Below, piece by piece: positions 429 through 45,229 of a stretch of DNA of 64,000 nucleotides. The stretch is from positions 29,823 to 93,822 of the forward strand of contig CANFBW010000001.1 of assembly GCA_947444925.1 (NCBI GenBank), read 5' to 3'. Below the pieces are notes generated by a model. That model did not search any database. It saw only the letters and a list, made by a program, of their open reading frames with translations, and was not told the DNA's origin. A program made the position numbers and the translations under genes. Source of the stretch: Flavobacteriales bacterium (GTDB lineage Bacteria > Bacteroidota > Bacteroidia > Flavobacteriales_C > GCA-002722245). Within the stretch, counting starts at the first letter, position 1, and every line of letters begins with the position of its first letter.

Positions 429-458
429 AAAGTAAATTTAAATCATTAATTTTTCACG

Positions 459-1520: not shown

Positions 1521-1590
1521 CGCGTGCCTACTTATCTTGGCATTTCAAATGCCTTTATAAATCCGCACGCGTCTGGAGACGCGCGCGATG
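1509..1590. terminator. Cluster of GC-rich hairpins in the convergent anmK/purQ spacer; likely bidirectional terminators
   Basis: Three stem-loops are visible. cgcgtt-tgt-aacgcg overlaps the anmK stop codon. ggcattt-c-aaatgcc is followed by a T-rich tract. cgcgtct-gga-agacgcg at about 1568-1584 is the third. Confidence 0.3.
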
Positions 1591-1607
1591 TATGTGATTA
1601 TAGATCC

Positions 1608-2306: not shown

Positions 2307-2479
2307 TTGTCTCTAATTTTATTTGTTGCTCAGTCAAAGTGTGCAGCTTTTTAATATTCCATGTTAGGAATGATGCATAAGTCACTGCGCTTTATTTTAT
2401 ATCGCAAACTTAAGGTAAAAAGTTAAAAGCGGAAAGGCAATTACTTCCTTTTTATCATTGTTTCTTTTACCTTTCACCA

Positions 2480-3793
2480 ATGATTCTCATTTACACGCCT
2501 AAAATCACAAGCAGAGCAAAGTATGCCTTTAATTTGGTGTTCAGAGATATTTACGCCGTAAAGTTTGAAATCACTACTGATAGAGATCGTTTTTTGAATT
2601 ATGAAGGACCTAAAATAACTTACAGCAATCAGCCTTTTGCTGACGAGGTGTTTGTTCAGTCGAAAGGACTTTTATTTGAAACGGGTATTTTAGACCAAGA
2701 TATTTCAGTTTTCAATTGGAAAGATACCAAGGCTTTTTTCTCAGTGGGCCCAAAGTCGGCACTGCCTTTTGATATTTTTTCGGCAGCCTTCTTTTTGGCC
2801 AGCCGCTACGAAGAGTATTTGCCGCATATTAGGGATGTGTACGATCGTTTTGATGCGCCCGCAAGTTTGGCGCACAGCTATAATTTTTTGCATCAACCGG
2901 TGGTCAATAAGTGGGCCTTGCATTTCAAGGCTGTGCTGCTGCAAAAATATCCCGATTTGATTTTTCCTGTTCAGAAATATAGGTTCATCTCGTCCATTGA
3001 TATCGACAATGCCTATGCTTACTTGGAAAAGGGCTTTGTGCGCACGATTGGTGGCTTTTTAAAGTCGCTTGCAAAACTTGATATTAAAGGATTCAAAGAA
3101 CGTTTGGCTGTGTTGAGTGGTTCGCAAAAAGATCCATATGATACCTACGACTTTCAACTTGACTTGCAAAAAAAGCACAATTTGGAATACCTCTACTTTT
3201 TTTTGTTGGGTGACTATGGCGTGAACGACAAAAATATTTCGGTGGAAAGCAGAAAATTTAGGTCACTCATCAAATCACTCGCCGATTATGCGCAAGTAGG
3301 TATTCATCCTTCGTTTGGTAGCAATGGCAAGCCTGCACTGCTGGCGAAAGAAGTGTCGCGACTCAATGGTGTCATCAATAGAGAGGTATTTAAGAGTCGA
3401 CAACATTTTTTGAAAATCACGTTGCCTGATACCTACCGTAACTTGATTGAACTTGATATTCAAGAAGATTACACAATGGGTTATGCCTCAGATTATGGTT
3501 TTAGAGCTGGCTTGTGTACTCCTTTTTTCTTTTATGATTTAGATTTGGAAGTGGAGACGGCGCTGAAGATTTTTCCATTTGCCATTATGGAAGGCACCTT
3601 GAAATACTACCAAAAAATATCACCCGAAAGGGCGATGGACCACTACCGAGCCATTATTGATGAGGTGAAGGCTGTGAATGGTATTTTTATTTCATTATGG
3701 CACAACGATTCTATGAACGATCGTGAATTGTGGAAAGGATGGCGTAAAGTGTATATTGATATGGTGGAATACGCAAAGCCTGATGGACATTAA
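2480..3793 (+). CDS. Conserved hypothetical protein, possibly polysaccharide-deacetylase-like
   Basis: Intact 437-aa ORF with no recognisable catalytic motif by eye. I recall similar proteins annotated as polysaccharide deacetylase family in Bacteroidetes. The function call is weak. Confidence 0.45.
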   Translation: MILIYTPKITSRAKYAFNLVFRDIYAVKFEITTDRDRFLNYEGPKITYSNQPFADEVFVQSKGLLFETGILDQDISVFNWKDTKAFFSVGPKSALPFDIFSAAFFLASRYEEYLPHIRDVYDRFDAPASLAHSYNFLHQPVVNKWALHFKAVLLQKYPDLIFPVQKYRFISSIDIDNAYAYLEKGFVRTIGGFLKSLAKLDIKGFKERLAVLSGSQKDPYDTYDFQLDLQKKHNLEYLYFFLLGDYGVNDKNISVESRKFRSLIKSLADYAQVGIHPSFGSNGKPALLAKEVSRLNGVINREVFKSRQHFLKITLPDTYRNLIELDIQEDYTMGYASDYGFRAGLCTPFFFYDLDLEVETALKIFPFAIMEGTLKYYQKISPERAMDHYRAIIDEVKAVNGIFISLWHNDSMNDRELWKGWRKVYIDMVEYAKPDGH

Positions 3794-30902: not shown

Positions 30903-31642
30903 CGTGTTGGTTCTTTAAGTACGTCAAGGAAAGTCATCGTGTTCCATTCCATTTGGTGCACCGCTCTGTTGATCATTGAGTTGATCCAGTTGTAGCAAAT
31001 ATAAGCCAAAATACCAACGATAAGTCCCGAAGCGGAAGTTACCATTTTGGTGTACAATCCATGAGATACGGTACCTATTTCTAGGGTTCCTGCTGCAGCA
31101 ATATCAGAGAACAACTGAATAACCCCAAAGATGGTTCCCAAGAAACCAAGCATAGGTGCAATACCTGCGATGATGGAAAGCATGTGCACGTTTTTTTCCA
31201 TTTTGTACACTTCAAATTTTCCAACAATTTCAACCGATTCTTCAATTTCTTTGATGGGCATTCCAATGCGAGAAATACCTTTTTCTATCATGCGCGCTAC
31301 AGGTTTGGTGGAGCTTTTGCAAAAGGTCAGTGCCGACTCAATATTGCCATTTCTAATAAAATCTTGAATAGTGTTCATAAAGGTATTGTCGGCCGACACT
31401 TGACGTTTGATATAGAGAAAGCGCTCCACAAAAATATAGATCGTCACAATCGACAAAATAGCGATGGGAATCATAATGACTCCACCTTTAACGATCACAT
31501 CGAGTAAGTCCACTGACTCTGCAGCCTTTTCAACTGGCGGAGTGATTGCGGCGGCAACGCCTGTGGCTTGAAGTAGAGAGAATGAGAACATAGTTTTTGT
31601 TTTATAATATGTGCAACGTGTGCATTGTGTGAATAATTTCAA
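30899..31642 (-). CDS. exbB: MotA/TolQ/ExbB proton-channel protein
   Basis: Three TM helices and the GTVxGI..F motif region (GTIFGVIQLF). The start is 31642 or an internal Met at 31591. There is a 4-bp overlap with exbD. Confidence 0.85.
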   Translation of the reverse strand: MKLFTQCTRCTYYKTKTMFSFSLLQATGVAAAITPPVEKAAESVDLLDVIVKGGVIMIPIAILSIVTIYIFVERFLYIKRQVSADNTFMNTIQDFIRNGNIESALTFCKSSTKPVARMIEKGISRIGMPIKEIEESVEIVGKFEVYKMEKNVHMLSIIAGIAPMLGFLGTIFGVIQLFSDIAAAGTLEIGTVSHGLYTKMVTSASGLIVGILAYICYNWINSMINRAVHQMEWNTMTFLDVLKEPTR

Positions 31643-31864
31643 TTACTAAAATATATTTATTAGCGGTTGAAAACGCACAGCTTTCGCAGAAGATGTTAAA
31701 AGCGCATTGTTTATTTCAAGACTTGCATCGCACATAATTTGCTGTTGTTCTTTAGCTCAGCGATAAATGGAGAGTGATCGGAGTTTTTCGACAGCTTGTC
31801 GAATTGAATTTGAAAATATTTATTTTTTATGGACATTCACCACTCACCAATTAATATTAGAGTA

Positions 31865-32251
31865 ATGGGACTTACTAAGGAATTTAAAGAATTTGCCATG
31901 CGTGGCAACGTGATCGATTTGGCTATTGGGGTTGTGATTGGCGGTGCCTTTGGCAAAATTGTTTCGTCATCAATCGATGATATTATTACACCACTTTTGC
32001 TCAAGCCTGCCCTGGAGGCGGCGCATTTGAGTAAAATTGAGGATTTAACTGCTTTTGGTTCGGTGAAGTACGGTGTTTTTTTATCGAATGTGATTAATTT
32101 TGTAATTGTTGCCTTCGTTCTGTTTATGATCATTAGAGAAATGAATAGGGCCAAAAAAAGAAATGAAGCGGCAGCTGCTGCTCCTGCCACTCCTGCAGCT
32201 AGCAAAGAAGAAATGCTATTGACGGAAATTCGCGATTTATTGAAGAAGTAA
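31865..32251 (+). CDS. mscL: Large-conductance mechanosensitive channel
   Basis: MGLTKEFKEFAMRGNVIDLAIGVVIGGAFGKIV is the canonical MscL N-terminus. The ORF track starts 36 nt upstream of this. Confidence 0.9.
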   Translation: MGLTKEFKEFAMRGNVIDLAIGVVIGGAFGKIVSSSIDDIITPLLLKPALEAAHLSKIEDLTAFGSVKYGVFLSNVINFVIVAFVLFMIIREMNRAKKRNEAAAAAPATPAASKEEMLLTEIRDLLKK

Positions 32252-32268
32252 AATGACAATTTAAAACT

Positions 32269-33237
32269 GTGGAGATGAATAAAATATTTTTAGCACTGAC
32301 AATGATGCTGTCAGTCGCTGCTATTCAAGCGCAAACAACAGAAGCCGAAGAAGCTTTGAGAACTAAGAACGCCGATACTTTATTGGGCTGGAAGAAAGGC
32401 TGTATCGTAAATGTTGGGCTCTCACAAGTGAGTTTAACGAATTGGGCTGCTGGTGGACAAAATTCATTGTCGATCAACGGTTTGGTAAGTGTCTTTGCGC
32501 ACAAAAAAATGAAAAATTCTTTTTGGGAAAACTATTTAGACCTTGGTTATGGTGTGTTGCAGCAAGGCAATACGCAGGGTTGGAGAAAAACGGATGACAA
32601 GGTAGATCTGTTGACGAAGTATGGACAACAGATTTCGGGCAAGTATTATTTTGCTGCTTTGGCCAATTTTAAAACACAAATGACTCCTGGTTACAATTTT
32701 GGCACCGAAGCAGTGCGCATTTCAAATCTGTTAGCGCCTGCATACATACTTAGCGCCATAGGGGTGGAGACGGAAGTGAATTCGTACTTGTCGCTGTTTG
32801 TAGCGCCAGTGACTTCAAAAATTACTTTGGTATACGATCAAGATTTGGCCGATGCAGGCGCGTTTGGCGTTCGGGCAGCAGAGTATGATGGTACAGGAAC
32901 AACACTGCTGCAACAAGGAAAAAATATCAGAAGTGAATTTGGTGCATACGCACGTGTTTCATACAAGCGAGAAATAATGAAAAATGTAACATTAAAGACC
33001 AAATTGGATTTGTTTTCAAATTACTTGCACAATCCCCAAAACATCGATGTAAACTGGGACTTGCTTGTTGTAATGAAAGTGAATAAGTTTATTTCAGCTA
33101 CCCTTGGAACCAATTTGATTTACGACGATGATATCAAAATTGCTGTGGATAGAAACAACGACGGTGTGATTGATGCGAGCGGTCCGCGAGTACAATTTAA
33201 AGAGTTGATTACTGCCGGCTTTTCGTGTAAGTTTTAG
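32269..33237 (+). CDS. Outer-membrane beta-barrel protein, DUF3078-like
   Basis: Signal peptide, then alternating amphipathic strands. LTNWAAGGQNS motif. The function call rests on my recall of DUF3078 and is weak. Confidence 0.45.
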   Translation: MEMNKIFLALTMMLSVAAIQAQTTEAEEALRTKNADTLLGWKKGCIVNVGLSQVSLTNWAAGGQNSLSINGLVSVFAHKKMKNSFWENYLDLGYGVLQQGNTQGWRKTDDKVDLLTKYGQQISGKYYFAALANFKTQMTPGYNFGTEAVRISNLLAPAYILSAIGVETEVNSYLSLFVAPVTSKITLVYDQDLADAGAFGVRAAEYDGTGTTLLQQGKNIRSEFGAYARVSYKREIMKNVTLKTKLDLFSNYLHNPQNIDVNWDLLVVMKVNKFISATLGTNLIYDDDIKIAVDRNNDGVIDASGPRVQFKELITAGFSCKF

Positions 33238-33271
33238 TTCGCAAGTGATGAATTTTTATTGCGTTTTGAAT

Positions 33272-33997
33272 TTAGTTTTTAATGTTCATTCCTGCGTTCA
33301 TGAGAAGGTCGACGCCGTTCATTTGAACACTTGCAGAGCATAGGAAAGAAACGCTAGTGGCGACTTCTTCAATCGTGAGAAGTTTTTTTAAGGGATGGCT
33401 TTCCTTGATTTGTTCGATCATCCTTTCATCTGTTTCTGCAGTTAACGCAGTAAGCATGAACGAAGGAGAGATTGAGTTGGAGCTAATATTAAATTTTATG
33501 TTTTCTATCGCCCATACTTTGGTTAGTTTTTCTAAGTATGCTTTGTTGGCAATGTATACAGAAGATCCAATCGGTGGTGTATTGACTAGGGCAGCACTAA
33601 GAATAGTAATTATTTTTCCGCTCTTTTTTTTGCGGAAGGAAAGGATTGCTGTTTGCGTTATTTCAATTACTGGCAGTATATTGTTTTTAAAATCAAGAAA
33701 GAAGTCATTCGTTGGTGTTTTTTGAAAATGAGACTTAATGAATTCGCCGTTGTAAGCGTTATTGATTAGAACGTCTAAGTCAAATTCATGCATTGCCAAC
33801 TGAAGTGCCTGTATGTCATCAGGCTCACTGAAATCACATTTTATTGCTCTGCTATTGGGGTAATCGGTTTCAATTTCTTTGGCCTTCATAGCAGACTTGC
33901 TGTATGTAAAAAAAATGCTGTTATTTAGGTCTTCCGCTAGCTTTTTGGTGATCGCTTCTCCAAGTCCGGATGCGCCTCCTGTAATGAGTATATTCAT
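33272..33997 (-). CDS. SDR-family oxidoreductase (3-oxoacyl-ACP reductase-like)
   Basis: ILITGGASGLGEAI has the TGxxxGxG motif and NNAYNG is the NNAG motif. The catalytic YxxxK is SVYIANKAY. 241 aa. Confidence 0.8.
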   Translation of the reverse strand: MNILITGGASGLGEAITKKLAEDLNNSIFFTYSKSAMKAKEIETDYPNSRAIKCDFSEPDDIQALQLAMHEFDLDVLINNAYNGEFIKSHFQKTPTNDFFLDFKNNILPVIEITQTAILSFRKKKSGKIITILSAALVNTPPIGSSVYIANKAYLEKLTKVWAIENIKFNISSNSISPSFMLTALTAETDERMIEQIKESHPLKKLLTIEEVATSVSFLCSASVQMNGVDLLMNAGMNIKN

Positions 33998-34389
33998 AAG
34001 AGTATGCCAATTTGAATTTTTCCTTTCGCAACTATTTTACTTGCTGTTTTGAAATCGTATTTGAATTCAACTGCATTCACTGATTCGTAGATGCCAATGA
34101 TTACGGCCGTAAACAGTAATTCATCGTTGAGGTAAACAGGGTTTTTGAATTGTATTTCTTGAGAATGAATAATGACATTCTTAGTGGGTAAGCATTCCCC
34201 AATAAAATAAGAAAGGAATCCGTTCAAAATATTACCGTGCATAACTTTGCCTTTAAATCCTTTTGAGATTGCAAATGTCTCATTACAATGTAGCGGATTA
34301 TTATCTCTAAATAAGGCAACGAAGTTCGCGTGTGTATGCTCGGAAACCGTAAATTTTTCTTCGTATGTATTTCCTTCAACAAAAATCAT
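33994..34389 (-). CDS. Hotdog-fold (MaoC/FabZ-like) dehydratase
   Basis: 131 aa. The HTHANFVALFRDNNPLH motif sits at the N-terminus, where His/Asp are typical of MaoC dehydratases. 4-bp overlaps on both sides. Confidence 0.6.
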   Translation of the reverse strand: MIFVEGNTYEEKFTVSEHTHANFVALFRDNNPLHCNETFAISKGFKGKVMHGNILNGFLSYFIGECLPTKNVIIHSQEIQFKNPVYLNDELLFTAVIIGIYESVNAVEFKYDFKTASKIVAKGKIQIGILL

Positions 34390-34628
34390 ATTCCTTTTTC
34401 TTGCATGTTGGAAATCATTTCGCCAACGTTCGCCCAGCTTTGGATTTCTTTAGATGTAAAACGTATTTTGAATGCCTTTTCAATAGCCACTACGAGTTGT
34501 ATATGTGTCAAAGAATCCCATTCCTCAACGTCATTTGCATTTGATTTCTCTGTGATTATGATGTCGTCATTATCGAGAGTTTCGATAAAGATGGCGTTTA
34601 TCTTTTGGATAATTTCACTTCTTTCCAT
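34386..34628 (-). CDS. Acyl carrier protein (stand-alone PP-binding protein)
   Basis: EEWDSLTHIQLVVAIE contains the conserved DSL phosphopantetheine-attachment Ser. The start is taken at MERSEIIQ. The ORF track extends 18 codons further upstream. Confidence 0.75.
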   Translation of the reverse strand: MERSEIIQKINAIFIETLDNDDIIITEKSNANDVEEWDSLTHIQLVVAIEKAFKIRFTSKEIQSWANVGEMISNMQEKGI

Positions 34629-34635
34629 TGCTATT

Positions 34636-36357
34636 TTATTTGGTGCGTATAAAATTCTTTTTTGTTTCGTATGAAGGTACATCTAAATGCCAACGCTCTG
34701 TTCTTTCTGTGAAGCCCAAGTTGGCATAATGTTCTTTGACCATTTCATTTTTTGCGGTGGGCACATATTCTCCAATGATCGACGAATAGCATTTGTCTTT
34801 TGCAAATTCAACGATGCTATTAAGTACAAAATTTTCCATTCCACGTTTCAATACTCGGCAGCTCATAAACCATGAATCAATGAACAAGGTACTTGCGTTT
34901 TCTTTGCGTAGAATGACAACACAAATCAATCCATTGTCTCCAAATTTGTCATTTAAAGTAAATGAAAAAGTGAAGTGATCTTTAGAATTTGCCAGTTTTT
35001 CAATGTCCGCGTCGTCGTAACGCACGGTGCGCAGATTGAATTGATTCGAACGCTGAGAAAGCTGTGATACTCTGGGTGTATTGAATTTATTAAAGGATTC
35101 AACCAATGATAACATGTTTAAGCTTTTCAGAAAATCATCTTCATTGGTGAAGTTTTGTTGCACTCGGCTTCTTTGCGCCTCTACCTGGTACAACTGTGTT
35201 CTTTCAGTGTCTTCTTTGGAGAAAGAAGCGGTTTCAAAAAGGTTTAAGGTATAGAGATATTCCAAATATTCTGCAGGATCCTCTGGAAGTTCAGGGACAC
35301 AGATTTGAGGAATGTTTTCTCTAACGATGTTTCTTTCAAATGGATTGTCGTCGAGAAAAACCATAGAGTCAAAACCAATGTTCAATATTTTTTGAATTTG
35401 ACGGATATTGTCGGCTTTATTTTCCCAATTGGCAACAAAAACAGCAATGTCTTCGAGGTGTAGCACCATGTCGGGATGTTTTTCAAAAGGTTCTTTGGCT
35501 ACCGACTCAGTGTTTTTACTACACACCGCTATGATAATTCCTCTCTGTTTTAATTTTTTAATCCAATATTGAAATTCAGAAAAAGCTTTTCCTATTCCCA
35601 AAGCTCCAATTTGTATGTTTTCTAAGCCATCGTCACCAATGATTCCCCCCCACATGGTATTGTCTAAATCAACAATGAGACATTTTTTAAATTTGCCTTC
35701 TAGTGCTGAAATGAGCGCTATTGTTTTCGCTGCAACTATTGGAAGTGCATCAATACTCAAAACCATTTCTGTATTGATGTATATAGCGCTTTGAAATAAG
35801 AATTGTTTTCCGAAGTTGTTTTGAATAGAGGAGATGTCACACAAATAAAAATTGTTGGTTTTGGCTGCATACAGCATCAACTCGTAATTCAGCTTTCTAA
35901 GTTGAAACAAGAAAGAAGATTCTGTTTTGTTGGCGAAATTTCCAAAAACCGCATCTTCAATTTCAGTGTAATTGTAGTAGATTATTTTTGCATTGAGTTT
36001 TTGTGTGAGAACAGAAAAACTGTTTTTAATGATTTCGAGTTCATTGGCTGCCAGCAAAGGGTGTTGCTCTACTTTGTATTTATTGTATTTTCCAAGCAGT
36101 TTATGTGCCGATTGAAATACAAGGATGATTTCGGGTGCAAAAGAATACAGTTCAGAATTGGGGTCGAAAATTTGTCTTTCAATTTGATTGAAGTCGGCTT
36201 CCCATATGTCTAAATTCAATCCTTCGTCGAACGCTGTTCCTCGCAATGCTTGAATTAAAAACTGTGTTGCACTATCTCCCAGCACTGCTATTTTAATGGT
36301 CTTCAGTTTTGAGAAATCCTTCTTTAAATTCTTTTTTAACTGAGAAAAGTCTTTCAT
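34636..36357 (-). CDS. FkbH-like protein (HAD-superfamily IIIC phosphatase-like loader with GNAT-like C-terminal domain)
   Basis: 573 aa. HAD motif I is LIVDLDNTMWGG. The N-terminal IKIAVLGDSATQF is GDS-like. The C-terminal ~170 aa are GNAT-fold-like. The length and domain order match FkbH/HAD-IIIC family proteins. Confidence 0.7.
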   Translation of the reverse strand: MKDFSQLKKNLKKDFSKLKTIKIAVLGDSATQFLIQALRGTAFDEGLNLDIWEADFNQIERQIFDPNSELYSFAPEIILVFQSAHKLLGKYNKYKVEQHPLLAANELEIIKNSFSVLTQKLNAKIIYYNYTEIEDAVFGNFANKTESSFLFQLRKLNYELMLYAAKTNNFYLCDISSIQNNFGKQFLFQSAIYINTEMVLSIDALPIVAAKTIALISALEGKFKKCLIVDLDNTMWGGIIGDDGLENIQIGALGIGKAFSEFQYWIKKLKQRGIIIAVCSKNTESVAKEPFEKHPDMVLHLEDIAVFVANWENKADNIRQIQKILNIGFDSMVFLDDNPFERNIVRENIPQICVPELPEDPAEYLEYLYTLNLFETASFSKEDTERTQLYQVEAQRSRVQQNFTNEDDFLKSLNMLSLVESFNKFNTPRVSQLSQRSNQFNLRTVRYDDADIEKLANSKDHFTFSFTLNDKFGDNGLICVVILRKENASTLFIDSWFMSCRVLKRGMENFVLNSIVEFAKDKCYSSIIGEYVPTAKNEMVKEHYANLGFTERTERWHLDVPSYETKKNFIRTK

Positions 36358-36476
36358 TAATAGATGGAAAATTGAAATGTTAGATCATAAAAGTAGCTTT
36401 TGAATTTGAGAATCACAAAGAAACAAGGGTGTTAGCTATATGTTTGTTGTTGTCAATTTCCAAAATAAGCAACGGA

Positions 36477-37430
36477 TCAATGCTGGCTTAAATGAGATAT
36501 AGCGTTTTTAAAACTAGGAAAAGCCATTATTTTCTTTGTAAACCACTCTCCTCCGCATTTGTTTAAGTGACCATTGTCGGCATACAGTGAGTCGGGAAGG
36601 TCACCTACTTGTTCTTTAGAGCAGAAAAGGTGTCCGTTTTTTTTGATGATGTCACTCACCCGTAAGTCATGTGCTTTTATATATGCTGCAACGGTTTTGT
36701 TGTGGTATTTTTGATTTGGGGATGGCATATTTACATACAAAATGGTTATGTTTTTGCGCTTAAAATATGAGCACACTTTTTCAAGATAGACATAAGATTT
36801 TTCGACGCTTCTGTATTCTTTTACAGCGGAGATTTTTCGTTGCTCGTTAATGTATGTGCCGCCATTGATGTCTAAGGATTGATTGCCGCTATTTTTTTTT
36901 GTTTTCTTTAATTCGTCATTGATCCAACAGGTGTATTTGATCAATCCATCAAGGTTTCCTCCTTTTAAGTAGGAGTACTCGCAGAATGTACCAGTAAAAT
37001 ACAGATCTAATTCAAGCGATGAAGGAATGTTTTTTTCTTCGACCAGTGCTTCAGCAGTGTATAAGGATTGACAGTCGATCCACAACAATAGTTTTGGACG
37101 AATGTGATTTGCAATAAATTCCGAAGTCCGGTCAATATCCCGAGCTGTGAAATGCCATGATGCAAAATTGTAGTAATGAAGATTTGGCGGTATCGATTTC
37201 AGTAGAACGGAAGTGTTTAAGTCATAATATGTAAGAGAACTTCCTATGCCGAGGATGTCAATTTCTTTAACTTGTGTGTGTTTTAAGTGCCACATTTTTA
37301 CGTCAAAAGAACCACTATCAGATAAGCGTGGTGCGATATTTTTTTGTTCAAGGTAAATGCGGTACAATACCATTGATCCATAGGTCAATAGCGTGAAAAT
37401 TAATATTTTATATAGCGTTTCTTTTTTCAA
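36477..37430 (-). CDS. Membrane-anchored SGNH-like protein, DltD/AlgJ-type partner of the MBOAT
   Basis: The ORF track starts inside the MBOAT gene. A TTG at 37430..37428 overlapping the MBOAT stop gives MKKETLYKILIFTLLTYGSMVLY, a signal anchor. DILGIGSSLTYYD is a candidate Ser-nucleophile block. The position directly downstream of the MBOAT mirrors DltB-DltD, PatA-PatB and AlgI-AlgJ pairs. Confidence 0.5.
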   Translation of the reverse strand: MKKETLYKILIFTLLTYGSMVLYRIYLEQKNIAPRLSDSGSFDVKMWHLKHTQVKEIDILGIGSSLTYYDLNTSVLLKSIPPNLHYYNFASWHFTARDIDRTSEFIANHIRPKLLLWIDCQSLYTAEALVEEKNIPSSLELDLYFTGTFCEYSYLKGGNLDGLIKYTCWINDELKKTKKNSGNQSLDINGGTYINEQRKISAVKEYRSVEKSYVYLEKVCSYFKRKNITILYVNMPSPNQKYHNKTVAAYIKAHDLRVSDIIKKNGHLFCSKEQVGDLPDSLYADNGHLNKCGGEWFTKKIMAFPSFKNAISHLSQH

Positions 37431-38869
37431 AATTGAAAATAGATGAATTGTTGATGTTGCATATTTCCAAAAAGTATGATCATCCAAATTGCAAATAAGT
37501 ATACTGGCCATCTAAGTGATTTAGAAGACCTAAAGAAGCGGGCATAAATGTCATGTCGGATGTCTAGCCATTCCAATGCAATCAAAAGGATTATTAACAT
37601 GAAGTCAATAAATAATCCTTTTGTCCCAATGTCATAGTTAACATTGATAGAAAGTCCTTTGATATTTAGTGTGAAGATGGTTTTGAAAGCACTCATTGCC
37701 TGACCAAAATTCTTTGCTCTAAATAAGATAAAAGCGAGTGCGACAAAGGAAAATGTGATTCCCGTTGCTAAGAAATTGAAAAGGTGGGTGTTGGTTTTGT
37801 TTTTGAGTTGTTTTCTTTTTTTCTTGGTTAAGATTTCTACGGAAAGGTAAATTCCGTGAACAAATCCATAACAAATAAAAGCCCAACTGGCGCCATGCCA
37901 TAAACCACTTAGTGTGAAAATTATCATAACCCCTAGTATTGGCGCCCATTTTCCTGCATCTCGCATGTTGATTACAATGGGAGTATATATATAATTGGTG
38001 AACCATGTGGTGAGTGATATGTGCCACTTTCTCCAAAATTCGGTTAGACTTTTACTGAAAAATGGCTTATTAAAATTGCTTACCAATTCAAATCCCATAA
38101 CCCTGGCAGTTCCCTTCGCTATTAAACTGTATCCCGCGAAATCACAATATACTTGTATTGTGAAAAAGAGAGTGGCTATTACTATTGGGAAAAAGGAATA
38201 TTGTGTTAGGTCGTTAAAAACGGTGTTGACATAAGTTGCCAGATTATCAGCGATTACTATTTTTTGCATAGCGCCCCAAAGCATCAGTTGTAAGCCATAC
38301 GTTATATCTTGCGTTTGAACGCCAGGATGGGTTTTAAGTTGAGGTAATAGGTGATTTCCTTTTTCTATTGGGCCTGCAACGAGTTGTGGGAAAAAGCAAA
38401 CAAATAGAGCGAAAATTCCAAGGTGTTTTTCTGCCTTTAATTCTCCTTTATAGACATCAATTAGGTAGCCTGTAATTTGAAATACATGAAATGAAATACC
38501 AATCGGCAAAGCCCATTTTAAGTAGGGAAAATGATGAAAAATATTGAGTCCTGTCAATGCACTGTTTATGTTGTCAATAGTAAAATCGTAATATTTAAAA
38601 ATGAACAATTGACCAAAATTACATACGAGACCTATTGTGAAAAGAACTTTCCTTTTATGAATTGAATTACTAGATTCCATGCCTAAGCTACATAGGTAGC
38701 TGATCACAATGGTAGCCAGTAATAGTAGTAGGTAGTCAAATCGCCAGCACGAATAGAAATAAATACTCGCTAGGAGTAGAGGGATCCACTTGTATTTTGA
38801 AGGGGTGCTTAAAAAAACAATCGCAACGGCAATAAAAAAAAACAGGTAGTCTACGGAATTAAAAAGCAT
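37427..38869 (-). CDS. MBOAT-family membrane-bound O-acyltransferase (DltB/AlgI/PatA-like)
   Basis: 480 aa and polytopic. The conserved His region is FWRKWHISLTTWFTNYIYTPI. The overall MBOAT pattern includes WHGASW. Confidence 0.85.
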   Translation of the reverse strand: MLFNSVDYLFFFIAVAIVFLSTPSKYKWIPLLLASIYFYSCWRFDYLLLLLATIVISYLCSLGMESSNSIHKRKVLFTIGLVCNFGQLFIFKYYDFTIDNINSALTGLNIFHHFPYLKWALPIGISFHVFQITGYLIDVYKGELKAEKHLGIFALFVCFFPQLVAGPIEKGNHLLPQLKTHPGVQTQDITYGLQLMLWGAMQKIVIADNLATYVNTVFNDLTQYSFFPIVIATLFFTIQVYCDFAGYSLIAKGTARVMGFELVSNFNKPFFSKSLTEFWRKWHISLTTWFTNYIYTPIVINMRDAGKWAPILGVMIIFTLSGLWHGASWAFICYGFVHGIYLSVEILTKKKRKQLKNKTNTHLFNFLATGITFSFVALAFILFRAKNFGQAMSAFKTIFTLNIKGLSINVNYDIGTKGLFIDFMLIILLIALEWLDIRHDIYARFFRSSKSLRWPVYLFAIWMIILFGNMQHQQFIYFQF

Positions 38870-38984
38870 TGTGCGTTTTTTTAATACCTATTAAAATCTT
38901 GATTTTTGTCGCGATAATCATGAAGTCATGTTGGTGCGCTAAAATAGTGGTTTTAATTGAAAACGAACAAACGTAAAATAAAAA

Positions 38985-39011
38985 CCCCTCAATTAAATTG
39001 AGGGGTTTTTT
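38985..39011. terminator. Bidirectional rho-independent terminator (cccctcaatttaattgagggg flanked by A- and T-runs)
   Basis: Perfect 8-bp GC-rich stem. On the minus strand it immediately follows the tRNA 3' end. Confidence 0.6.
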
Positions 39012-39012
39012 G

Positions 39013-39087
39013 TGGGAGCTATAGGATTCGAACCTATGACCCTCTGCTTGTAAGGCAGATGCTCTGAACCAGCTGAGCTAAGCTCCC
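39013..39087 (-). tRNA. tRNA-Val (anticodon UAC)
   Basis: The reverse complement folds as a cloverleaf: GGGAGCTTAGCTCAGCTGGTTCAGAGCATCTGCCTTACAAGCAGAGGGTCATAGGTTCGAATCCTATAGCTCCCA. The acceptor stem is GGGAGCT/AGCTCCC, the anticodon loop is CTTACAA, and the T-arm is GGTTCGAATCC. Confidence 0.85.
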
Positions 39088-39170
39088 TTAGTGGGCTGCA
39101 AATATAGAGGATATTTTACTTTACACAAATATTTTGCATTTTTTTTTCGGGTAAAATGAAAAAACTTTCT

Positions 39171-41294
39171 CTAATTTTTTCTGTCGTAGTAGAAAAGGCG
39201 CAGCAATGCTGGAAAAAATATGAAATCACTAATCCATGCGAAGATGATGGCAGAGGTGGAGAGAATACCAAAATCGATGATGAAAACAATGTTGCTGGTC
39301 AGCAATACCGCAAAACCGATTGCAAACATAATAGTTGTTGCAGTGCAAGGGTGCACAATGATGCGCACTGAGTCGGCAAAGAGCACGTTGATTGCATAAT
39401 TTTTACGCTGGTACAAGTTGTTTTTAAAGCTCCAGATAACGTGGAGTACATCGTCGGCTATCATGCCGACAACAACAGAGAAAATCACGGACGTTGCTAT
39501 GTCAAATGGAATATTGAGTAGCTTCATTAGTAAGGCAACAGCGCAAAGTGGAAAAATGGTTGCGAAAGTTGCGAGTAATCCAAGTTTCAAGTCGCGCACA
39601 AATACGGACATTACCAATAAAATCAAGATTACTGCAACAAATAAGCTTTCCAGCATTTCATCAACGATTACATTCATTTGTTCAATGTAAGCGGGTAAAT
39701 ACCCCACCGCTCTTGCTGAAATCGGTTCTTTGCCAATGGCTGAGTTGATTTTTGATTGCGCTGTATTGATCATTTTTTCCATCTCTTTTACAGAGCCAGA
39801 TGGAATTTGAATAGTGATGCGCGAATGCATTTGGTCTTTCGAAAGCAGACCCGCAGAAATGCCTTCGGCATCTTTTGGACTGCTGTATTTTAATTCACTA
39901 AGAAGCGGTTTCCACGCATCGTAGGCGACGGCACTCTTAATGTAAGGTAGTGTGAGTAGTTGTTTTCGCACGTGCGCAATGGTTCTCCAATCAGCATTGC
40001 TGAATGGTTTTCCATCTTCTTTGTCGACCATGAAGTCGATGATGTTTACAGAGCCAAAGTTTTTTTCAATGTAGTCTTTTGACATCCGTACTTTGTTGTC
40101 AGGTTTTATAAAACCGACCGTATCCGTATCAACTGTTACATAAGGAAATATGAAAACACCGGCCCCCATCCACACCAACATAATGATCATGACGATCCAC
40201 GCTAGGCGTTTGTTCAGTTTAGCATAGTATCCGTCTAACATCTTGTTCATCCAATCCATTTTTTCAATGTTTCGGTTCACGTCGATGCTGCGCACAACCA
40301 ATGGTGTGCCAATTAAAAATAGCACCACTAATCCGATCACAATCCCTAATGAAGTGAGCAAGCCGAATTGGTAAATGACTTTGATGTTGCTCAACATTAA
40401 GGACCCAAAGCCAATGATGTTGGTCAACGCCGAAGTAAGGATGGGGGGGATTTTTTTATTTAAATACTTGTCGACATCACTGCTTTGTTTAGTGACTAAG
40501 TGCATTGCAAATGAGAAGAAGTTGATGATGAACAGCAGTGGTACTATCAATGTAATCATATTGATTGGAACATTGAACCAGCCAAATAGCGACATAGCTG
40601 GCCATATGGCAAGGAGAACCAATGATGAGCAGAGAAGTAAGTATTTTGCTTTTCGCAAGCGCCACCAAAGTAGAAGAAAGATCAACGCATAGCACGAAGT
40701 GAAAAGCCATTTGGAATCTTGGGTGCTAAGGGCGTTGATTTCTGTAAAAATAACGCCAGCTCCAGTTAAATCTTTTTTAATTGTGGCTGGGATTTGCGGA
40801 TAAACCAATTTTTGCAAGGAATCCAGTAAAAGAGGGCGAATTCTATCGGGATCTTTGTTGAGTCGCACTCTCAAAAACATGGCCTCACCATTGGGATTGG
40901 TTGATTTGAAGTAGGTGTCTTCCATTTTGTGGACGTATTCTTCGCCCATCAAATCTTTCAAGGAAGTGAGGTTTAAGCGTGAAAAAGTTTGATCGAAACC
41001 GTGAATTTTGCGAATATTTTCGCTCGTTGCATATAGTTGATCAAGTTTCTGATCCTCACTAATGCCCTTCGGAAAAGTAAGATAGAGTACCATTACTTCG
41101 TCGTTGCCGAAGTAACTTTCAAATTCATTTTTATCGGGAAGTTGACGGGAATTTTCGGGATACCAATCTTCGGGACGATTGGCGATGTGTATTTTCAAAA
41201 TGGGAATACCTGATAGCAATACAATGGCAGTTAAGAGAATTAACAGCCACGGTTTTTTTGCCGCAAAACGGATATATTTTAAATACAATTTCAT
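39171..41294 (-). CDS. MMPL / RND-superfamily exporter (COG1033-like, two 6-TM bundles)
   Basis: About 700 aa with two hydrophobic blocks separated by soluble domains. The likely start is MKLYLKYIRFAAKKPWLLILLTAIVLL. The ORF track extends this to 41327. Confidence 0.65.
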   Translation of the reverse strand: MKLYLKYIRFAAKKPWLLILLTAIVLLSGIPILKIHIANRPEDWYPENSRQLPDKNEFESYFGNDEVMVLYLTFPKGISEDQKLDQLYATSENIRKIHGFDQTFSRLNLTSLKDLMGEEYVHKMEDTYFKSTNPNGEAMFLRVRLNKDPDRIRPLLLDSLQKLVYPQIPATIKKDLTGAGVIFTEINALSTQDSKWLFTSCYALIFLLLWWRLRKAKYLLLCSSLVLLAIWPAMSLFGWFNVPINMITLIVPLLFIINFFSFAMHLVTKQSSDVDKYLNKKIPPILTSALTNIIGFGSLMLSNIKVIYQFGLLTSLGIVIGLVVLFLIGTPLVVRSIDVNRNIEKMDWMNKMLDGYYAKLNKRLAWIVMIIMLVWMGAGVFIFPYVTVDTDTVGFIKPDNKVRMSKDYIEKNFGSVNIIDFMVDKEDGKPFSNADWRTIAHVRKQLLTLPYIKSAVAYDAWKPLLSELKYSSPKDAEGISAGLLSKDQMHSRITIQIPSGSVKEMEKMINTAQSKINSAIGKEPISARAVGYLPAYIEQMNVIVDEMLESLFVAVILILLVMSVFVRDLKLGLLATFATIFPLCAVALLMKLLNIPFDIATSVIFSVVVGMIADDVLHVIWSFKNNLYQRKNYAINVLFADSVRIIVHPCTATTIMFAIGFAVLLTSNIVFIIDFGILSTSAIIFAWISDFIFFPALLRLFYYDRKN

Positions 41295-41390
41295 TTTAAT
41301 ACACAGTGCTTTACGGTCAACACACAATTGTTTCCGGTAAAGCGATCGCTAAAGTAAGAAAAAGCAAAGATAGTTCTGCTGTAAAAGCAA

Positions 41391-42134
41391 TCAATATCGA
41401 GGTTTGGAGTGTTTTCCGGTTAGTTTAAAATAACCTTTCATGTACTTTCCTTTGATGCCCGCTCTGAACAAAGAGTAGATTCCTGCAAGAAAAAGTTCAG
41501 TGACACTGCGTGGCGTTGCATTGTAAAATCTTCGCGCAGAGGTCTTAACGTAAGTGCTTCTGATTAATTTAGAACGATAGTAAGGTGCGGCATCCACCCC
41601 GTATTTATAGTCTTCAAAAATAATTCCGTTGTTAAATCCGCCAATTTTATTGTGAATTTCTTTTGTTGAAAAGATGCAACAACCGTGCACTGCGGGTTTA
41701 AACCAACGCAAAACAGTAAGATAAATGTTGGAGTAGGCCCAGTATAGAAAACGGTAGTATAAGTTTTTTTCAGCGGCGTAAATTTTACTTCCTCCGACTT
41801 TAATGCCTCTTCGCACAATTTCGTCCATTGCTGTCTTCAGGAAATTTGCAGGAAGCACCACATCTGCGTCAAGAAAAAGAAGGTTTTCATAGATCGCGTT
41901 GTCGGCACCAATGTTTCTTTGCAGAGATATGTTGCGCAGATTGTCAAGTGCGATGAAGTTTATTGGCATGCCGTGTTCGTTTTTGAAACGAGCTGCTACT
42001 TCTGCTGTTTTGTCGTCAGAGCCTGCGTCTGATATAACAATTTCATATACAACACCTTTTTGTATGCGAATGCTTTCCAATAATTTCGGAAGGTAGTTTT
42101 CTTCGTTGAGCGTACAAATTACAATTGATACCAT
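41391..42134 (-). CDS. Family 2 glycosyltransferase
   Basis: MVSIVICTLNEENYLPKLLESI...ISDAGSDDKT...LFLDADV reads as the GT2 DxD-type Rossmann N-terminal domain. Confidence 0.8.
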   Translation of the reverse strand: MVSIVICTLNEENYLPKLLESIRIQKGVVYEIVISDAGSDDKTAEVAARFKNEHGMPINFIALDNLRNISLQRNIGADNAIYENLLFLDADVVLPANFLKTAMDEIVRRGIKVGGSKIYAAEKNLYYRFLYWAYSNIYLTVLRWFKPAVHGCCIFSTKEIHNKIGGFNNGIIFEDYKYGVDAAPYYRSKLIRSTYVKTSARRFYNATPRSVTELFLAGIYSLFRAGIKGKYMKGYFKLTGKHSKPRY

Positions 42135-42173
42135 CCCCTAAATATAATGTTAGTGTTGTAGTTTTGTTTTGAA

Positions 42174-43316
42174 TTAAATTGATCCTGCCAAATGAGATTT
42201 GTTGTTTTCGGCAAGAATGTCGTCGGCGGTTATTTTCAAATGCTTAACATGTGAAACCACGCCTTCAAAGAAGGAGAAAGATTTGTACCAATCTGCGTTG
42301 TTTTCCTCTAAGGTTTCCTTAATGATATCAGTAAGTGCCGGGTAATGGATGTGACACACTTCAGGAAAAAGATGATGGGCGATGTGAAGGTTGAACCCAC
42401 CAAAAATAAAATTTGAAACTGGACTGTCAGGATTAAAGTCGATGGTTGTAATTACTTGATGTCTTGACCAAGCGTCATGTACAACGTGGTTTGCTTCATC
42501 AGCTTCCACGTAAGGAACTTCTACCACGTGATGAGAAATGAAGAAGGTGTAAGTTAAAGCTAAGGAAACCAGCATGTGCATGATTACGAAGGCTGCGATA
42601 ATTTCAAACAAGGAAAAAGTATCGCCTAACAAAATGTATGGTAATGCGATGAAGTTGAAGAAATATACAAGCTTTAGCAGAATCACTTTAAGCAATTCGT
42701 AAAATGGAACATGATTGAATTTTAAATTCGCGTGGTCTTTTCTGTAAAAGAAGGTGAAGTCGATGAATATGATCCAAATTAAAGAGGAGAACATGTACAG
42801 AAATGAAGCGTAAATGTGTTGAAATTTATGGAGTTTGTGCGTTTTTTGACCTGGGTGCAGCAAAAGCATGTTGGTTATTTCCAAGTCGGAATCGTAGTTG
42901 AATACATTTGGAAAAATATGATGGGAACTATTGTGGCGAATTTGCCAAAAATAGCCGCTCATTCCATTAATGCCGAATACCATTTGAAAAATAAAGTTGT
43001 CCACCTTTTTGTTGCCTGTAATACAGTGGTGCGCGGCATCGTGCCCGATATTGATGCCTACTATTAAAAGAGATGTGGCAACAACAATGTATAATAATGT
43101 TAATGTTAGAAAAGATCCAGCATGCAAAAGAGCATAATAAGCTACAATTGCCAAGAGCATCATCGAGATGAATTTCACCCAAAGATAGGTGTTGCCATTT
43201 TTTCCGCCTTTTTGAGAAGCGAAGTACTTTTCAGACTTGGCTCTTATTTGTTTGAAGATATGATCCGAGGTGTCCTTCGACTCATACTTCATTTTTTTCT
43301 TTTCAAAAGATTTCAT
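42174..43316 (-). CDS. Membrane fatty-acid desaturase (three His boxes)
   Basis: The three His boxes are HDAAHH, HNSSHH and HIAHHLFP, with four TM helices. 380 aa. Confidence 0.8.
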   Translation of the reverse strand: MKSFEKKKMKYESKDTSDHIFKQIRAKSEKYFASQKGGKNGNTYLWVKFISMMLLAIVAYYALLHAGSFLTLTLLYIVVATSLLIVGINIGHDAAHHCITGNKKVDNFIFQMVFGINGMSGYFWQIRHNSSHHIFPNVFNYDSDLEITNMLLLHPGQKTHKLHKFQHIYASFLYMFSSLIWIIFIDFTFFYRKDHANLKFNHVPFYELLKVILLKLVYFFNFIALPYILLGDTFSLFEIIAAFVIMHMLVSLALTYTFFISHHVVEVPYVEADEANHVVHDAWSRHQVITTIDFNPDSPVSNFIFGGFNLHIAHHLFPEVCHIHYPALTDIIKETLEENNADWYKSFSFFEGVVSHVKHLKITADDILAENNKSHLAGSI

Positions 43317-43516
43317 CTTGAATATTTATAATCCAGCGAACAAAGGTAGTAAAATAATTTGTTGGTGGGATGGGCTTTGGTAAAATTCGGATAACTTAGT
43401 TAAGTTTCTGATATTTAGTATTTTGAGTTGTGAATAAGCCGAAAGATTGACAAGGGTCATACTGCACACGCTCGGTAATTGTAAAGTTAAAAATGGTCTG
43501 CTCGCCCTCTCTTCAA

Positions 43517-45229
43517 TTATTGCAATCTTATTTCGTCAACGAAAATCCATGCAGGATGTCCTTCGCCTGTAAATCCTTCTGGTATGATTGTCTTTTTTGC
43601 GATGACTTTAATGAATTTGCTTTGTGTGGCAGAAAAATCAACGGTGATGGTTACTGTTTGTTTGCCGATTTTAGCTTGTGTTTTTTCTGCAATTAACTTG
43701 AAATTTTTTCCATCATCTGAACTGTAGATTTCAATTTTTTCGGGGTGGTGTATCCAAGCGTTGACTTGATTGTGAAAAGTCATCGCAATGGAGGAAAGGG
43801 TTGTGTTTGGATTTAAAGTCACAATCGCTTCAAGGTCCTCTCCTTCGAAGCTTACCCACTCTCCATCGGAAAACGAGGCCGATCCACTAATGCCATTGAG
43901 TAGTGTTGCTGCGCCGTTTTTACTTGCGTATTTGTTGCTCGGTGCATGTACTAAGTGGATTTCATTGCCAACACCTTTGTGTATGAAGTATTCTTCGGTA
44001 AATAGTTCGCCTGCGGCTTCTTCGCCATTATAAGCCATCGCGTTTAAAGTACAGCCCTTTTGAATGGCAAGTGGCATGTTGTATTTTTGGGAATGGGTGG
44101 TAGGTGTTTGTCCGTCGAGGGTGTAATAAATAGCGAGTTCTTTTTTACCGCTTTTAAGTTGTACTGCAATTTCACCACTCTGCTTTGCGCTTACATACGA
44201 AGCTGACACGTCAAAATATTTTTCTTTTGTGATGGTGTTCAATCCTTCGTTCATAGCGGGAAAATCAAGAAGTTCAATTTTTTTTACCGCTCCCCACGTG
44301 GTGAAGCAATGGCCAAGCATGTTTTGATTTTGAAGTGCAAATGAATATTTGATAAGGGCTTGCGCTGCTTTGACATCGGTATAGCTGCAGGGCAAGACTT
44401 TAAATCCTTTTTCCAAAAACAGGTCAATAGAGCCGTAACTTGAACGCACATTGTAATGCCAATCGCAAATCACAATGTCGTTGGGTATCATGTCTATTGC
44501 TGAAGAGGTGCCAACCGCTGAGGCTTCCCATGCGCCATAGTTGAATTGGGTCGCTTCAATCAGACGATCCCCCCAAATCATCATTTGAAGTTTTTTTTCT
44601 TTGACGAAGTGGTCGTGAAATTCATTAATAGCAATGGCCAATAGTTTGGCTGGATTTTTTCCGAAGGTGGCAGGGGATTTTGCGTTTCCTATCAAAAATA
44701 TTTCGTCCATTCCTAAGTGAATACCGTCGGCGTCGAATGCCGCTACAATTTCATCGATAAGTGCAAAAACAATTTCATTCACTTTTGGATTGGTAATGTC
44801 CCATTCTCTGCAATAAATACTATCGTTATTGGGAAAGGCGCCCGGCGTCAGGTCAAGTTCAGGGTATTTTTTAAGCAGAGAAGCAGTGTTCTGTTTCCAG
44901 GATTGGTGGCCGATGCACTGAAATTCAGGAATCAATCGGATGTTGTTTTTTTTGCACGACGCAGCAAAACTTTTGGCTCCATCAGCACTGATCGGTCGGG
45001 CACCATTGATGAGTTCAGGATGACTTTCAAATTCAAAATTGTAATCTACTTCAAGGATCAAGAGATTGATTCCTTTTTTTGAAAGTTCAGGTAGTTGCAG
45101 GCTAAGTCTATCAAGATCGGCATCAGTGCTATAATCGAGTAAGTGCAGGGCCGTCCATTTTTTGTCCATTTGCGCCGAGGCAGCTGTAGTCAAAAACAAA
45201 TATAAAATTGACAGAAATAGTGCTTTCAT
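43517..45229 (-). CDS. Secreted glycoside hydrolase, GH20-like TIM barrel with a C-terminal F5/8 type C (discoidin) domain
   Basis: Signal peptide. IRLIPEFQCIGHQ and IHLGMDEI resemble the GH20 blocks (V)IPEID.PGH and H.GGDE. The C-terminal ~150 aa are beta-sandwich-like. The function call is moderate to weak. Confidence 0.45.
   Translation of the reverse strand: MKALFLSILYLFLTTAASAQMDKKWTALHLLDYSTDADLDRLSLQLPELSKKGINLLILEVDYNFEFESHPELINGARPISADGAKSFAASCKKNNIRLIPEFQCIGHQSWKQNTASLLKKYPELDLTPGAFPNNDSIYCREWDITNPKVNEIVFALIDEIVAAFDADGIHLGMDEIFLIGNAKSPATFGKNPAKLLAIAINEFHDHFVKEKKLQMMIWGDRLIEATQFNYGAWEASAVGTSSAIDMIPNDIVICDWHYNVRSSYGSIDLFLEKGFKVLPCSYTDVKAAQALIKYSFALQNQNMLGHCFTTWGAVKKIELLDFPAMNEGLNTITKEKYFDVSASYVSAKQSGEIAVQLKSGKKELAIYYTLDGQTPTTHSQKYNMPLAIQKGCTLNAMAYNGEEAAGELFTEEYFIHKGVGNEIHLVHAPSNKYASKNGAATLLNGISGSASFSDGEWVSFEGEDLEAIVTLNPNTTLSSIAMTFHNQVNAWIHHPEKIEIYSSDDGKNFKLIAEKTQAKIGKQTVTITVDFSATQSKFIKVIAKKTIIPEGFTGEGHPAWIFVDEIRLQ

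Follow-up and report, generated by a model that had tools for sequence, protein, structure and literature searches.

We analyzed a 64,000-nucleotide stretch of DNA (hereafter the window) from an uncultured freshwater Flavobacteriales bacterium (assembly GCA_947444925.1, contig CANFBW010000001.1), in which three consecutive minus-strand genes encode a membrane fatty-acid desaturase, a family 2 glycosyltransferase (GT2) and an exporter of the MMPL/RND type. The explanation that we favor, at a probability of about one half, is that the desaturase and the GT2 make up a conserved two-gene module for an unsaturated glycolipid, that the exporter is a separate lipid exporter with the MmpL fold, and that neither is tied to the cassette of MBOAT, FkbH and acyl carrier protein (ACP) genes lying next to them. 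The original prediction, made from the sequence alone, had read the trio as a lipid or glycolipid export arm working as one unit with that cassette. The export arm is supported by the neighborhoods of exporter relatives and by the conservation of the desaturase and GT2 pair, while the union with the cassette fails. The analysis established the gene identities, the folds, the integrity of the motifs, the conservation of the pair, the neighborhood pattern of the exporter clade and the independence of the trio from the cassette.

Conservation of the desaturase and GT2 pair

Approximately 75 homologues of the GT2 (246–248 amino acids (aa), at least 43% identity) were found, including members in Hymenobacter, Saprospiraceae, Haliscomenobacter and Chryseolinea, and for 24 of them the longest contig was exactly equal in size to that of a desaturase homologue. 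Outside the exporter clade, the GT2 (49–77% identical to the one in the window) followed a desaturase homologue with at most one gene in between in all five contexts that could be read. The order was desaturase, DUF2334 and GT2 both in the cultured Hymenobacter sp. BT175 (GCA_020685205.1; L110) and in L113; desaturase, FA_hydroxylase, GT2, MFS, DUF5686, DUF2141 and an extracytoplasmic function (ECF) sigma factor in a Saprospiraceae locus (L111); thioesterase, a 242-aa protein, desaturase, GT2, an Omp85-like protein and GT21 in L112; and ECF sigma factor, a 405-aa protein, desaturase, GT2 and a 421-aa protein on the P0185 contig. The desaturase is the most constant partner of the GT2, and the exporter is the optional and variable part. 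As the pair is conserved across Bacteroidota, the desaturase is not a chance housekeeping neighbor, which contradicts the earlier suggestion that it might be an unrelated housekeeping gene that happens to sit here.

The export or outer-membrane part that comes after the pair varies, being an MFS protein in L111, an Omp85-like barrel in L112 and the MMPL protein in the clade of the window. Two further gene families occur at both kinds of loci: the Omp85-like protein of L112 is 45–48% identical to those beside MMPL in L011 and L019, and the ECF sigma factor of L111 is 39–42% identical to those beside MMPL in L007, L019 and L022. The Omp85-like protein, which adjoins either the exporter or the pair, is a candidate outer-membrane partner, and the presence of ECF sigma factors at both locus types suggests shared regulation; the 64-kb window itself has no homologue of the Omp85-like protein and no ECF sigma factor. 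The Omp85-like orthologues lack POTRA domains, measure approximately 320–425 aa and share 45–66% identity (L011, 7214–8491; L019, 8619–9569; L112, 8768–9934). Related ECF sigma factors (31–42% identity) flank the exporter or the pair in L007, L019, L022, L024, L025 and L111, usually together with a 490–580-aa protein that bears a weak outer-membrane barrel signal.

Neighborhoods of the exporter clade

The clade of the exporter is small: 23 homologues have at least 39% identity, and the next protein is at 23%. A profile search in 1.84 billion representatives gave approximately four full-length 50% clusters above 600 bits and, after a gap, a tail of 3,410 COG1033-like proteins, and the 185,579 GTDB species genomes held 18 loci of the clade, all in metagenome-assembled genomes of Bacteroidota.

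Neighboring genes were called and clustered at 21 distinct exporter loci, and the representatives were annotated. Enzymes acting on lipid head groups or acyl chains lay within about three genes of the exporter at 14 of the 21 loci, and these enzymes were of several kinds (desaturase, GT2, PF13528 glycosyltransferase, GT4, PAP2, or DUF3419 with GNAT and an AMP-binding enzyme). The closest relatives (80–86% MMPL identity to the window; L012, L013 and L014) have GH20, desaturase, GT2, MMPL and tRNA-Val in this order. At 61% identity, L021 lacks the GT2 and shows desaturase, GH20, desaturase and MMPL; at 58–60%, L015–L018 retain only GH20 and MMPL; and at 59–60%, L010 and L019 carry a desaturase, a GT28-like glycosyltransferase (PF13528), the Omp85-like barrel and MMPL. 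More distant loci (43–50%; L011 and L022–L025) have MMPL and PAP2 followed by a GT4 or PF13528 glycosyltransferase, often with an ECF sigma factor and an outer-membrane barrel-like protein, and those at 37–40% (L026, L027 and L029) have a phosphoenolpyruvate (PEP)-utilising enzyme, DUF3419, GNAT and an AMP-binding enzyme before MMPL, which is followed by a patatin gene in L027 and L029. In L028 (36%) such a downstream patatin gene is all that is present, and no lipid gene was seen near the exporters of L007 and L008 (at most 50% identity). Such a change between non-homologous lipid enzymes from one group of loci to the next is the pattern expected of a lipid exporter that was recruited to different lipid pathways.

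The set of L026, L027 and L029 comprises five genes directly upstream of MMPL (PEP-utilising enzyme of 872 aa, DUF3419, a 225-aa protein, GNAT of 344 aa and the AMP-binding enzyme) and looks like an uncharacterised lipid head-group pathway, with DUF3419 presumably being BtaA-like.

These neighborhoods also bear on a simpler explanation, namely that the three genes are unrelated housekeeping genes which inherited gene order keeps side by side. The order GH20, MMPL and tRNA-Val persists in L015–L018 in the absence of desaturase and GT2, the relatives in L007 and L008 have no lipid genes, and the exporter probably has a promoter of its own, all of which would fit a coincidence. Nevertheless, the desaturase and GT2 recur together in distant orders where all other neighbors differ, non-homologous lipid enzymes stand beside exporter relatives in otherwise unrelated contexts, and orthologous Omp85-like and ECF sigma factor genes bridge the loci of the pair and those of the exporter, so that we regard mere adjacency as unlikely.

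Identities of the three proteins

The three genes are long open reading frames (ORFs) on the minus strand (Table 1) and are real genes rather than chance ORFs: an identical desaturase protein is present on 16 public metagenome contigs, and the gene order is the same in the six metagenome contigs that were inspected, as far as each extends. The trio had thus been correctly recognized from the letters alone, in its position as well as in the identities of its members. Public gene calls and the sequence favor a start of the exporter gene at the ATG at 41294 over the TTG at 41327 with which the ORF begins.

The desaturase matches PF00487 (FA_desaturase; E 1e-27, 97.9 bits against a cut-off of 29.7) and has all three His boxes intact and in order (HDAAHH at 92, HNSSHH at 128, HIAHH at 311), together with four segments resembling transmembrane (TM) helices that are arranged as pairs at 44–92 and 167–261; the model, the boxes and the TM segments place it among membrane fatty-acid desaturases of the front-end type. 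The family is large in Bacteroidota, and its members are labelled linoleoyl-CoA or acyl-CoA desaturase by JGI and NCBI (automatic source labels). No curated NCBIfam model matched the protein, and a sequence search of the PDB gave no match and hence no solved relative.

PF00487 also covers carotenoid ketolases and hydroxylases, and the pair could accordingly be thought to modify a carotenoid or other isoprenoid lipid (a ketolase or hydroxylase with a glycosyltransferase), with the exporter carrying the pigment glycoside to the outer membrane in the manner of HpnN. An FA_hydroxylase gene between desaturase and GT2 in L111, a 3beta-hydroxysteroid dehydrogenase/epimerase gene upstream in L110, the nearby ECF sigma factors, and the weak matches of the exporter to HpnN and to the sterol-sensing domain would agree with such a role. 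However, no crt, cru or cyclase gene was present in the contexts examined or in the annotated parts of the window, and the length of 380 aa, the long N-terminal region and the HX3HH/HX3HH/HX2HH boxes fit front-end acyl desaturases, as does the naming of homologues as linoleoyl-CoA desaturase in the source databases. The CruG model, moreover, reached 22.9 bits (cut-off 600), and we consider a carotenoid pathway improbable.

The GT2 is a member of PF00535 (E 3e-20, 73.3 bits against a cut-off of 23.3) and fits the GT2 family. Its catalytic motifs and nucleotide-binding Asp residues are intact (D36/S39/D41, the DXD motif D89-A-D91, E174-D175 and R201-R202, all invariant in 38 homologues), and its AlphaFold2 (AF2) model is a confident GT-A fold (pLDDT, the predicted local distance difference test, of 91.9). 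Hydropathy showed no TM segment; the last 48 residues combine a high hydrophobic content with 11 K/R against 1 D/E, and the helix at 125–145 is rich in aromatics. The best NCBIfam match, TIGR04283, remained below its threshold (95.4 bits, cut-off 182), and no HpnI or HpnB model matched.

Fold searches with the GT2 recovered GtrB, ArnC, DPMS and PcManGT within the top 50 matches, which brings in another explanation, in which the GT2 is a polyprenyl-phosphate sugar synthase (ArnC/GtrB/FlmF2 type) serving periplasmic glycosylation of lipid A/lipopolysaccharide (LPS) or of another envelope component, and the desaturase and exporter serve other lipids. This would be in line with the PMT_2 gene (ArnT-like GT-C) near the pair in L112 and L113, the latter also having a 322-aa GT2 and a deacetylase, with the deacetylase-like DUF2334 gene between desaturase and GT2 in L110 and L113, and with the PAP2 genes and lpxA/C/D near exporter relatives. 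But the GT2 lacks the C-terminal TM hairpin of ArnC and GtrB and reached 24.9 bits against NF007986 (ArnC; 529 required), no GT-C or flippase gene lies near the trio in the window, and the tight pairing of GT2 and desaturase would be left unexplained. We therefore rate this role of the GT2 as rather unlikely.

The exporter matches PF03176 in two stretches (45.5 bits, cut-off 20.5). Its layout, taken from hydropathy and the AF2 model, is TM1, a loop of approximately 155 aa, TM2–6, TM7, a loop of approximately 150 aa and TM8–12, and the model (pLDDT 83.5) has the RND/MMPL fold with 12 TM helices. The best Foldseek matches were MmpL5, MmpL4 and MmpL3 (TM-score 0.75–0.79), followed by NCR1/NPC1 and HpnN. 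It falls outside both HAE3 (TIGR00921; 103.2 bits against 351.9) and HpnN (TIGR03480; 44.3 bits against 751.85, with only one TM bundle matching). Residues D614, D615 and H618 in TM10 are invariant in the family. The polar residues of the membrane part are distributed asymmetrically, roughly in mirror image to AcrB, where TM4 carries D407/D408 and TM10 carries K940. A sterol substrate was also considered, on account of weak matches to the sterol-sensing domain and to NCR1, and set aside as an over-reading, as the match to the domain (19.9 bits) stays below the threshold of 22.3.

Promoter-like sites and terminators

The desaturase and GT2 genes lie 39 bp apart, and 96 bp separate the GT2 gene from that of the exporter. 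In the promoter-like −7 box upstream of the desaturase, the TAnnTTTG core, which we take to be the consensus of the primary sigma factor of Bacteroidetes and hence a putative promoter only, is invariant between the window and the sister species (L012–L014), while the two n positions vary. Between GT2 and exporter, the window, L012, L013 and L014 all have a short hairpin with a T-run whose position is kept and whose stem sequences differ, followed by an invariant block (TTCTTACTTTAGCG); to our reading, the former is probably a weak terminator and the latter a putative separate promoter of the exporter gene. A TAtcTTTG element at 41372 before the exporter gene was rejected as a promoter, since it is not conserved in the sister species.

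The exporter gene is probably not connected with the downstream module, as a tRNA gene with its own promoter-like site and an intrinsic terminator with a 14-bp stem intervene. Full two-box matches were found at only two places on the minus strand between 30 and 46 kb, one before this tRNA gene and the other inside the ExbB gene at 31457. A scan for sigma-70 promoters was uninformative (38 sites against 38.4 expected).

Independence of the MBOAT/FkbH cassette

The cassette lies in a lineage-specific extra block of 7,376 bp (Table 1). Both L014 and L021 are collinear with the window from GH20 up to and including the tRNA terminator (45166 to 38980), and again from ExbB onwards (31604), and the block is missing between tRNA-Val and ExbB in both of these relatives. 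The GC content at 34001–38000 is 0.356, compared with approximately 0.40–0.41 in the rest of the window, and is consistent with a foreign origin of the FkbH/MBOAT part of the block. No att-like direct repeat of the tRNA-Val 3′ end was found at the far side of the block with up to two mismatches allowed; insertion by an integrase is thus unproven, and we call the block an indel only.

A scan of metagenomes gave 500 FkbH relatives. In the best 80 of these 500 loci, ACP was present in 73, MBOAT in 50, MaoC in 29 and the short-chain dehydrogenase/reductase (SDR) in 26, and homologues of the exporter, the GT2 and the desaturase occurred in none of the 79 informative loci. The remaining locus, L030, could not be counted as a cassette without the trio, as its contig ends inside a mobile element that is integrated in tRNA-Val. 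The genes that recur beside FkbH elsewhere encode a methyltransferase, a DegT aminotransferase, further GT2s, Bac_transf and a GDP-mannose dehydratase, as in surface-polysaccharide loci, and it is among such genes that the cassette usually resides. Conversely, the trio is present in L012 (MMPL 86%) and L014 (MMPL 80%) with no cassette directly after tRNA-Val.

The co-occurrence check that accompanied the original prediction therefore found the two gene sets unlinked, which is the outcome that had been named in advance as speaking against a single unit: the trio stands alone in L012 and L014 and the cassette in 79 of 79 loci. A common pathway, in which the trio together with the MBOAT/FkbH/ACP/MaoC/SDR genes would make, acylate and export a single glycolipid, is very improbable. 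Its attraction lies in the genes being adjacent and equally oriented in the window as well as in contigs of the same species (L001 and L002), in the DltB-like character of the MBOAT (174 bits) and in a loose resemblance to lipoteichoic acid, which has a glycolipid anchor and is modified by Dlt. Against this stand the absence of the cassette after tRNA-Val in L012, L014 and L021, the lack of trio homologues in the informative FkbH loci, the location in a lower-GC extra block, the intervening tRNA gene with its promoter-like site and strong terminator, and the company that the cassette keeps elsewhere (DegT, Bac_transf, GT2 and GDP-mannose dehydratase, as in polysaccharide loci). The MBOAT/FkbH cassette is not part of the unit of the trio.

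As for the cassette itself, the MBOAT remains far below the cut-off of the DltB model (375 bits), and the 344-aa ORF has no Pfam match. By analogy, the cassette could make glyceryl- or lactyl-ACP and transfer the unit across the membrane in a Dlt-like way; we presume a likeness to FkbH-DH-KR loading modules. The MBOAT of the window is only 31–43% identical to those of other cassettes, and the 344-aa ORF was seen elsewhere only in L030. In two ORFs the start was probably set too early: the 344-aa ORF shares 85 nt with the MBOAT gene (298 aa in public calls), and the ACP ORF of 98 aa overlaps FkbH (called at 80 aa).

Surroundings of the locus

With a GC content of approximately 40%, the window has a gene content typical for a Flavobacteriales chromosome. 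Its features are listed in Table 1.

Table 1. Positions of the trio, its flanking genes and the regulatory signals, counted from the first nucleotide of the window
Feature	Position	Strand	Evidence or remark
Membrane fatty-acid desaturase, front-end (delta-6-like) type, 380 aa	42174..43316	-	PF00487, His boxes
Soluble/peripheral GT2, GT-A fold, 247 aa	41391..42134	-	PF00535, motifs, AF2 model
MMPL/RND (COG1033-like) exporter, 707 aa	39171..41294	-	PF03176, layout, Foldseek
Promoter-like −7 box TAccTTTG, 32 nt before the ATG of the desaturase gene	43341..43348	-	Motif scan
Signals between GT2 and MMPL	41347..41380	-	Hairpin and T-run 41380-41356, then invariant TTCTTACTTTAGCG block 41360-41347
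tRNA promoter-like site TTTG-N19-TAtaTTTG	39099..39129	-	Ends 12 nt before the tRNA 5′ end
tRNA-Val(tac), directly after the exporter	39012-39087	-	ARAGORN
Intrinsic terminator after the tRNA, 14-bp stem, T-run	38980..39010	-	Terminator scan
GH20 hexosaminidase with signal peptide, Fn3_assoc, CHB_HEX_C and F5/8-C domains	43517-45229	-	Upstream of the trio
Lineage-specific extra block, 7,376 bp	31605..38979		DltB-like MBOAT, 344-aa ORF, FkbH, ACP, MaoC, SDR, DUF3078, MscL
Cassette: MBOAT, 344-aa ORF, FkbH, ACP, MaoC dehydratase, SDR	33272-38869	-	
344-aa ORF of the cassette	36477-37511	-	Start probably too early
ACP ORF of the cassette	34386-34682	-	Start probably too early

A GH20 gene lies upstream of the trio or of the exporter in all relatives with 58–86% MMPL identity, and in L021 (5818–9935) it stands between two desaturase paralogues. 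Together with the deacetylase-like DUF2334 neighbors of the pair elsewhere, GH20 may hint at an N-acetylhexosamine sugar or may reflect plain synteny.

The same tRNA-Val follows the exporter gene in L012–L016 and L021. Its 3′ flank differs in each of the relatives examined and is a variable site of insertion in the lineage. It leads straight to ExbB in L014 and L021, to ORFs of no assigned function and a DUF6371 gene in L012, and to a DUF3874-like ORF in L016, while L013 ends approximately 300 bp past tRNA-Val and is too short to judge the presence of the cassette. At this contig end (L013, 12629–12653) we noted a second, partial copy of the tRNA-Val 5′ part approximately 260 bp after the first, and the L013 species may thus have tandem tRNA-Val genes. 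On the sister contig L030 (92% nucleotide identity; 1–3190), a tyrosine integrase (PF00589) and a DDE transposase of an insertion sequence abut a tRNA-Val fragment, namely the 48-nt 3′ part (39012–39059 in the window), which marks tRNA-Val as a live integration site in the lineage.

Relation to known systems

All components are ordinary members of known superfamilies, and the placing of an RND protein next to lipid enzymes has precedents in the MmpL and HpnN systems. The exporter resembles the mycobacterial MmpL3/4/5 in its fold over the full length (TM-score as above), in its 12 TM helices and two periplasmic domains of approximately 150 aa, and in its place beside surface-lipid enzymes. It differs from them in sequence (12–15% identity), in the lack of an MmpS partner and of a C-terminal cytoplasmic domain, in its Gram-negative Bacteroidota host, in having GT2 and desaturase genes rather than polyketide synthase or acyl-activating genes as neighbors, and in TM4, where the Asp-Tyr pair is missing, so that only TM10 keeps the D614-D615 pair.

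HpnN with HpnI and HpnK provides hopanoid export and head-group glycosylation. Here, too, a GT2 goes together with an RND/MMPL protein that probably transports a lipid, relatives of the window locus add the deacetylase-like DUF2334, and HpnN ranks high among the sequence and fold matches of the exporter. Unlike in that system, the exporter is far below the HpnN cut-off, the GT2 matches neither HpnI nor HpnB, and there is no squalene-hopene cyclase gene in the annotated parts of the window.

In cyanobacteria, a GT2 monoglucosyl-diacylglycerol synthase and acyl-lipid desaturases (DesD) act on the same glycolipid, although their genes are not clustered. The window has the same combination of a GT2 and a front-end-type three-His-box desaturase lacking a cytochrome b5 domain, but its GT2 is much shorter (247 aa, no TM segment), and its desaturase matched no NCBIfam model and no solved structure that would indicate orthology.

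The arsenosugar-associated, mftF-like GT2s of TIGR04283 are the best-scoring curated family, are of similar size and align with residues 2–212, yet the GT2 of the window is below the cut-off and not a member, and no radical-SAM or arsenic genes were seen nearby. Dlt D-alanylation compares with the cassette only: both combine a DltB-like MBOAT with a carrier protein and an enzyme to load it, whereas the loader of the cassette is FkbH (for a glyceryl-type unit) instead of DltA, its MBOAT scores below the DltB cut-off, and the cassette is unlinked to the trio.

Proposed function

In the explanation that we favor, the pair would be a module with its own promoter, in which the peripheral GT2 would use a nucleotide sugar to glycosylate a membrane lipid on the cytoplasmic side of the inner membrane, and the di-iron desaturase of the front-end type would introduce a cis double bond into one of the acyl chains in that same class of lipids. 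An unsaturated glycolipid would result, for which the glycosyl-diacylglycerol type is the simplest guess. The clade-specific RND protein with the MmpL fold, probably expressed from its own promoter and presumably driven by the proton gradient, would take this or a related polar lipid outward, from the inner membrane towards the periplasm and the outer membrane. We infer here the lipid acceptor, the action of desaturase and GT2 on one molecule and the transport of that product by the exporter.

Several observations weigh against this explanation. The fold matches of the GT2 are generic GT-A proteins, no solved structure exceeding 21% identity, and hence do not discriminate its acceptor, the top structural matches including polysaccharide as well as polyprenyl-phosphate enzymes. 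In TM4 of the exporter N258, H265 and K269 are invariant and there is no Asp, unlike in the relays of MmpL3 and AcrB. In L015–L018 neither desaturase nor GT2 adjoins the exporter, and most genomes with the desaturase and GT2 pair lack this exporter clade; consequently, the exporter and the pair are not obligate partners, and the order GH20, MMPL and tRNA-Val may be inherited synteny without functional meaning. Curated families, solved structures and the literature searched yielded no member of the GT2 family, the desaturase subfamily or the exporter clade with a tested function, and literature searches on several gene combinations found no relevant study.

Beyond the locus itself, the window may represent one version of an envelope-glycolipid system that spans the Bacteroidota, with the desaturase and the 247-aa GT2 as a core, interchangeable export parts (the small exporter clade, the POTRA-less Omp85-like barrel or an MFS protein) and often a dedicated ECF sigma factor, a possibility that we put forward tentatively and hold to be doubtful.

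Implications for Bacteroidota

The way in which Bacteroidota make non-LPS lipids and deliver them to the outer membrane is poorly understood. The FkbH/MBOAT cassette is to be treated apart, as a separate and widespread surface-acylation module whose merger with the trio is unsupported. For the lipids, the locus supplies a defined set of genes, namely the desaturase and GT2 pair, which is also present in the cultured Hymenobacter strain, and its candidate partners, i.e., the exporter clade, the Omp85-like barrel and the ECF sigma factor. If the Bacteroidota-wide system is real, these genes would constitute a route dedicated to the synthesis of a non-LPS glycolipid and its placement in the outer membrane.

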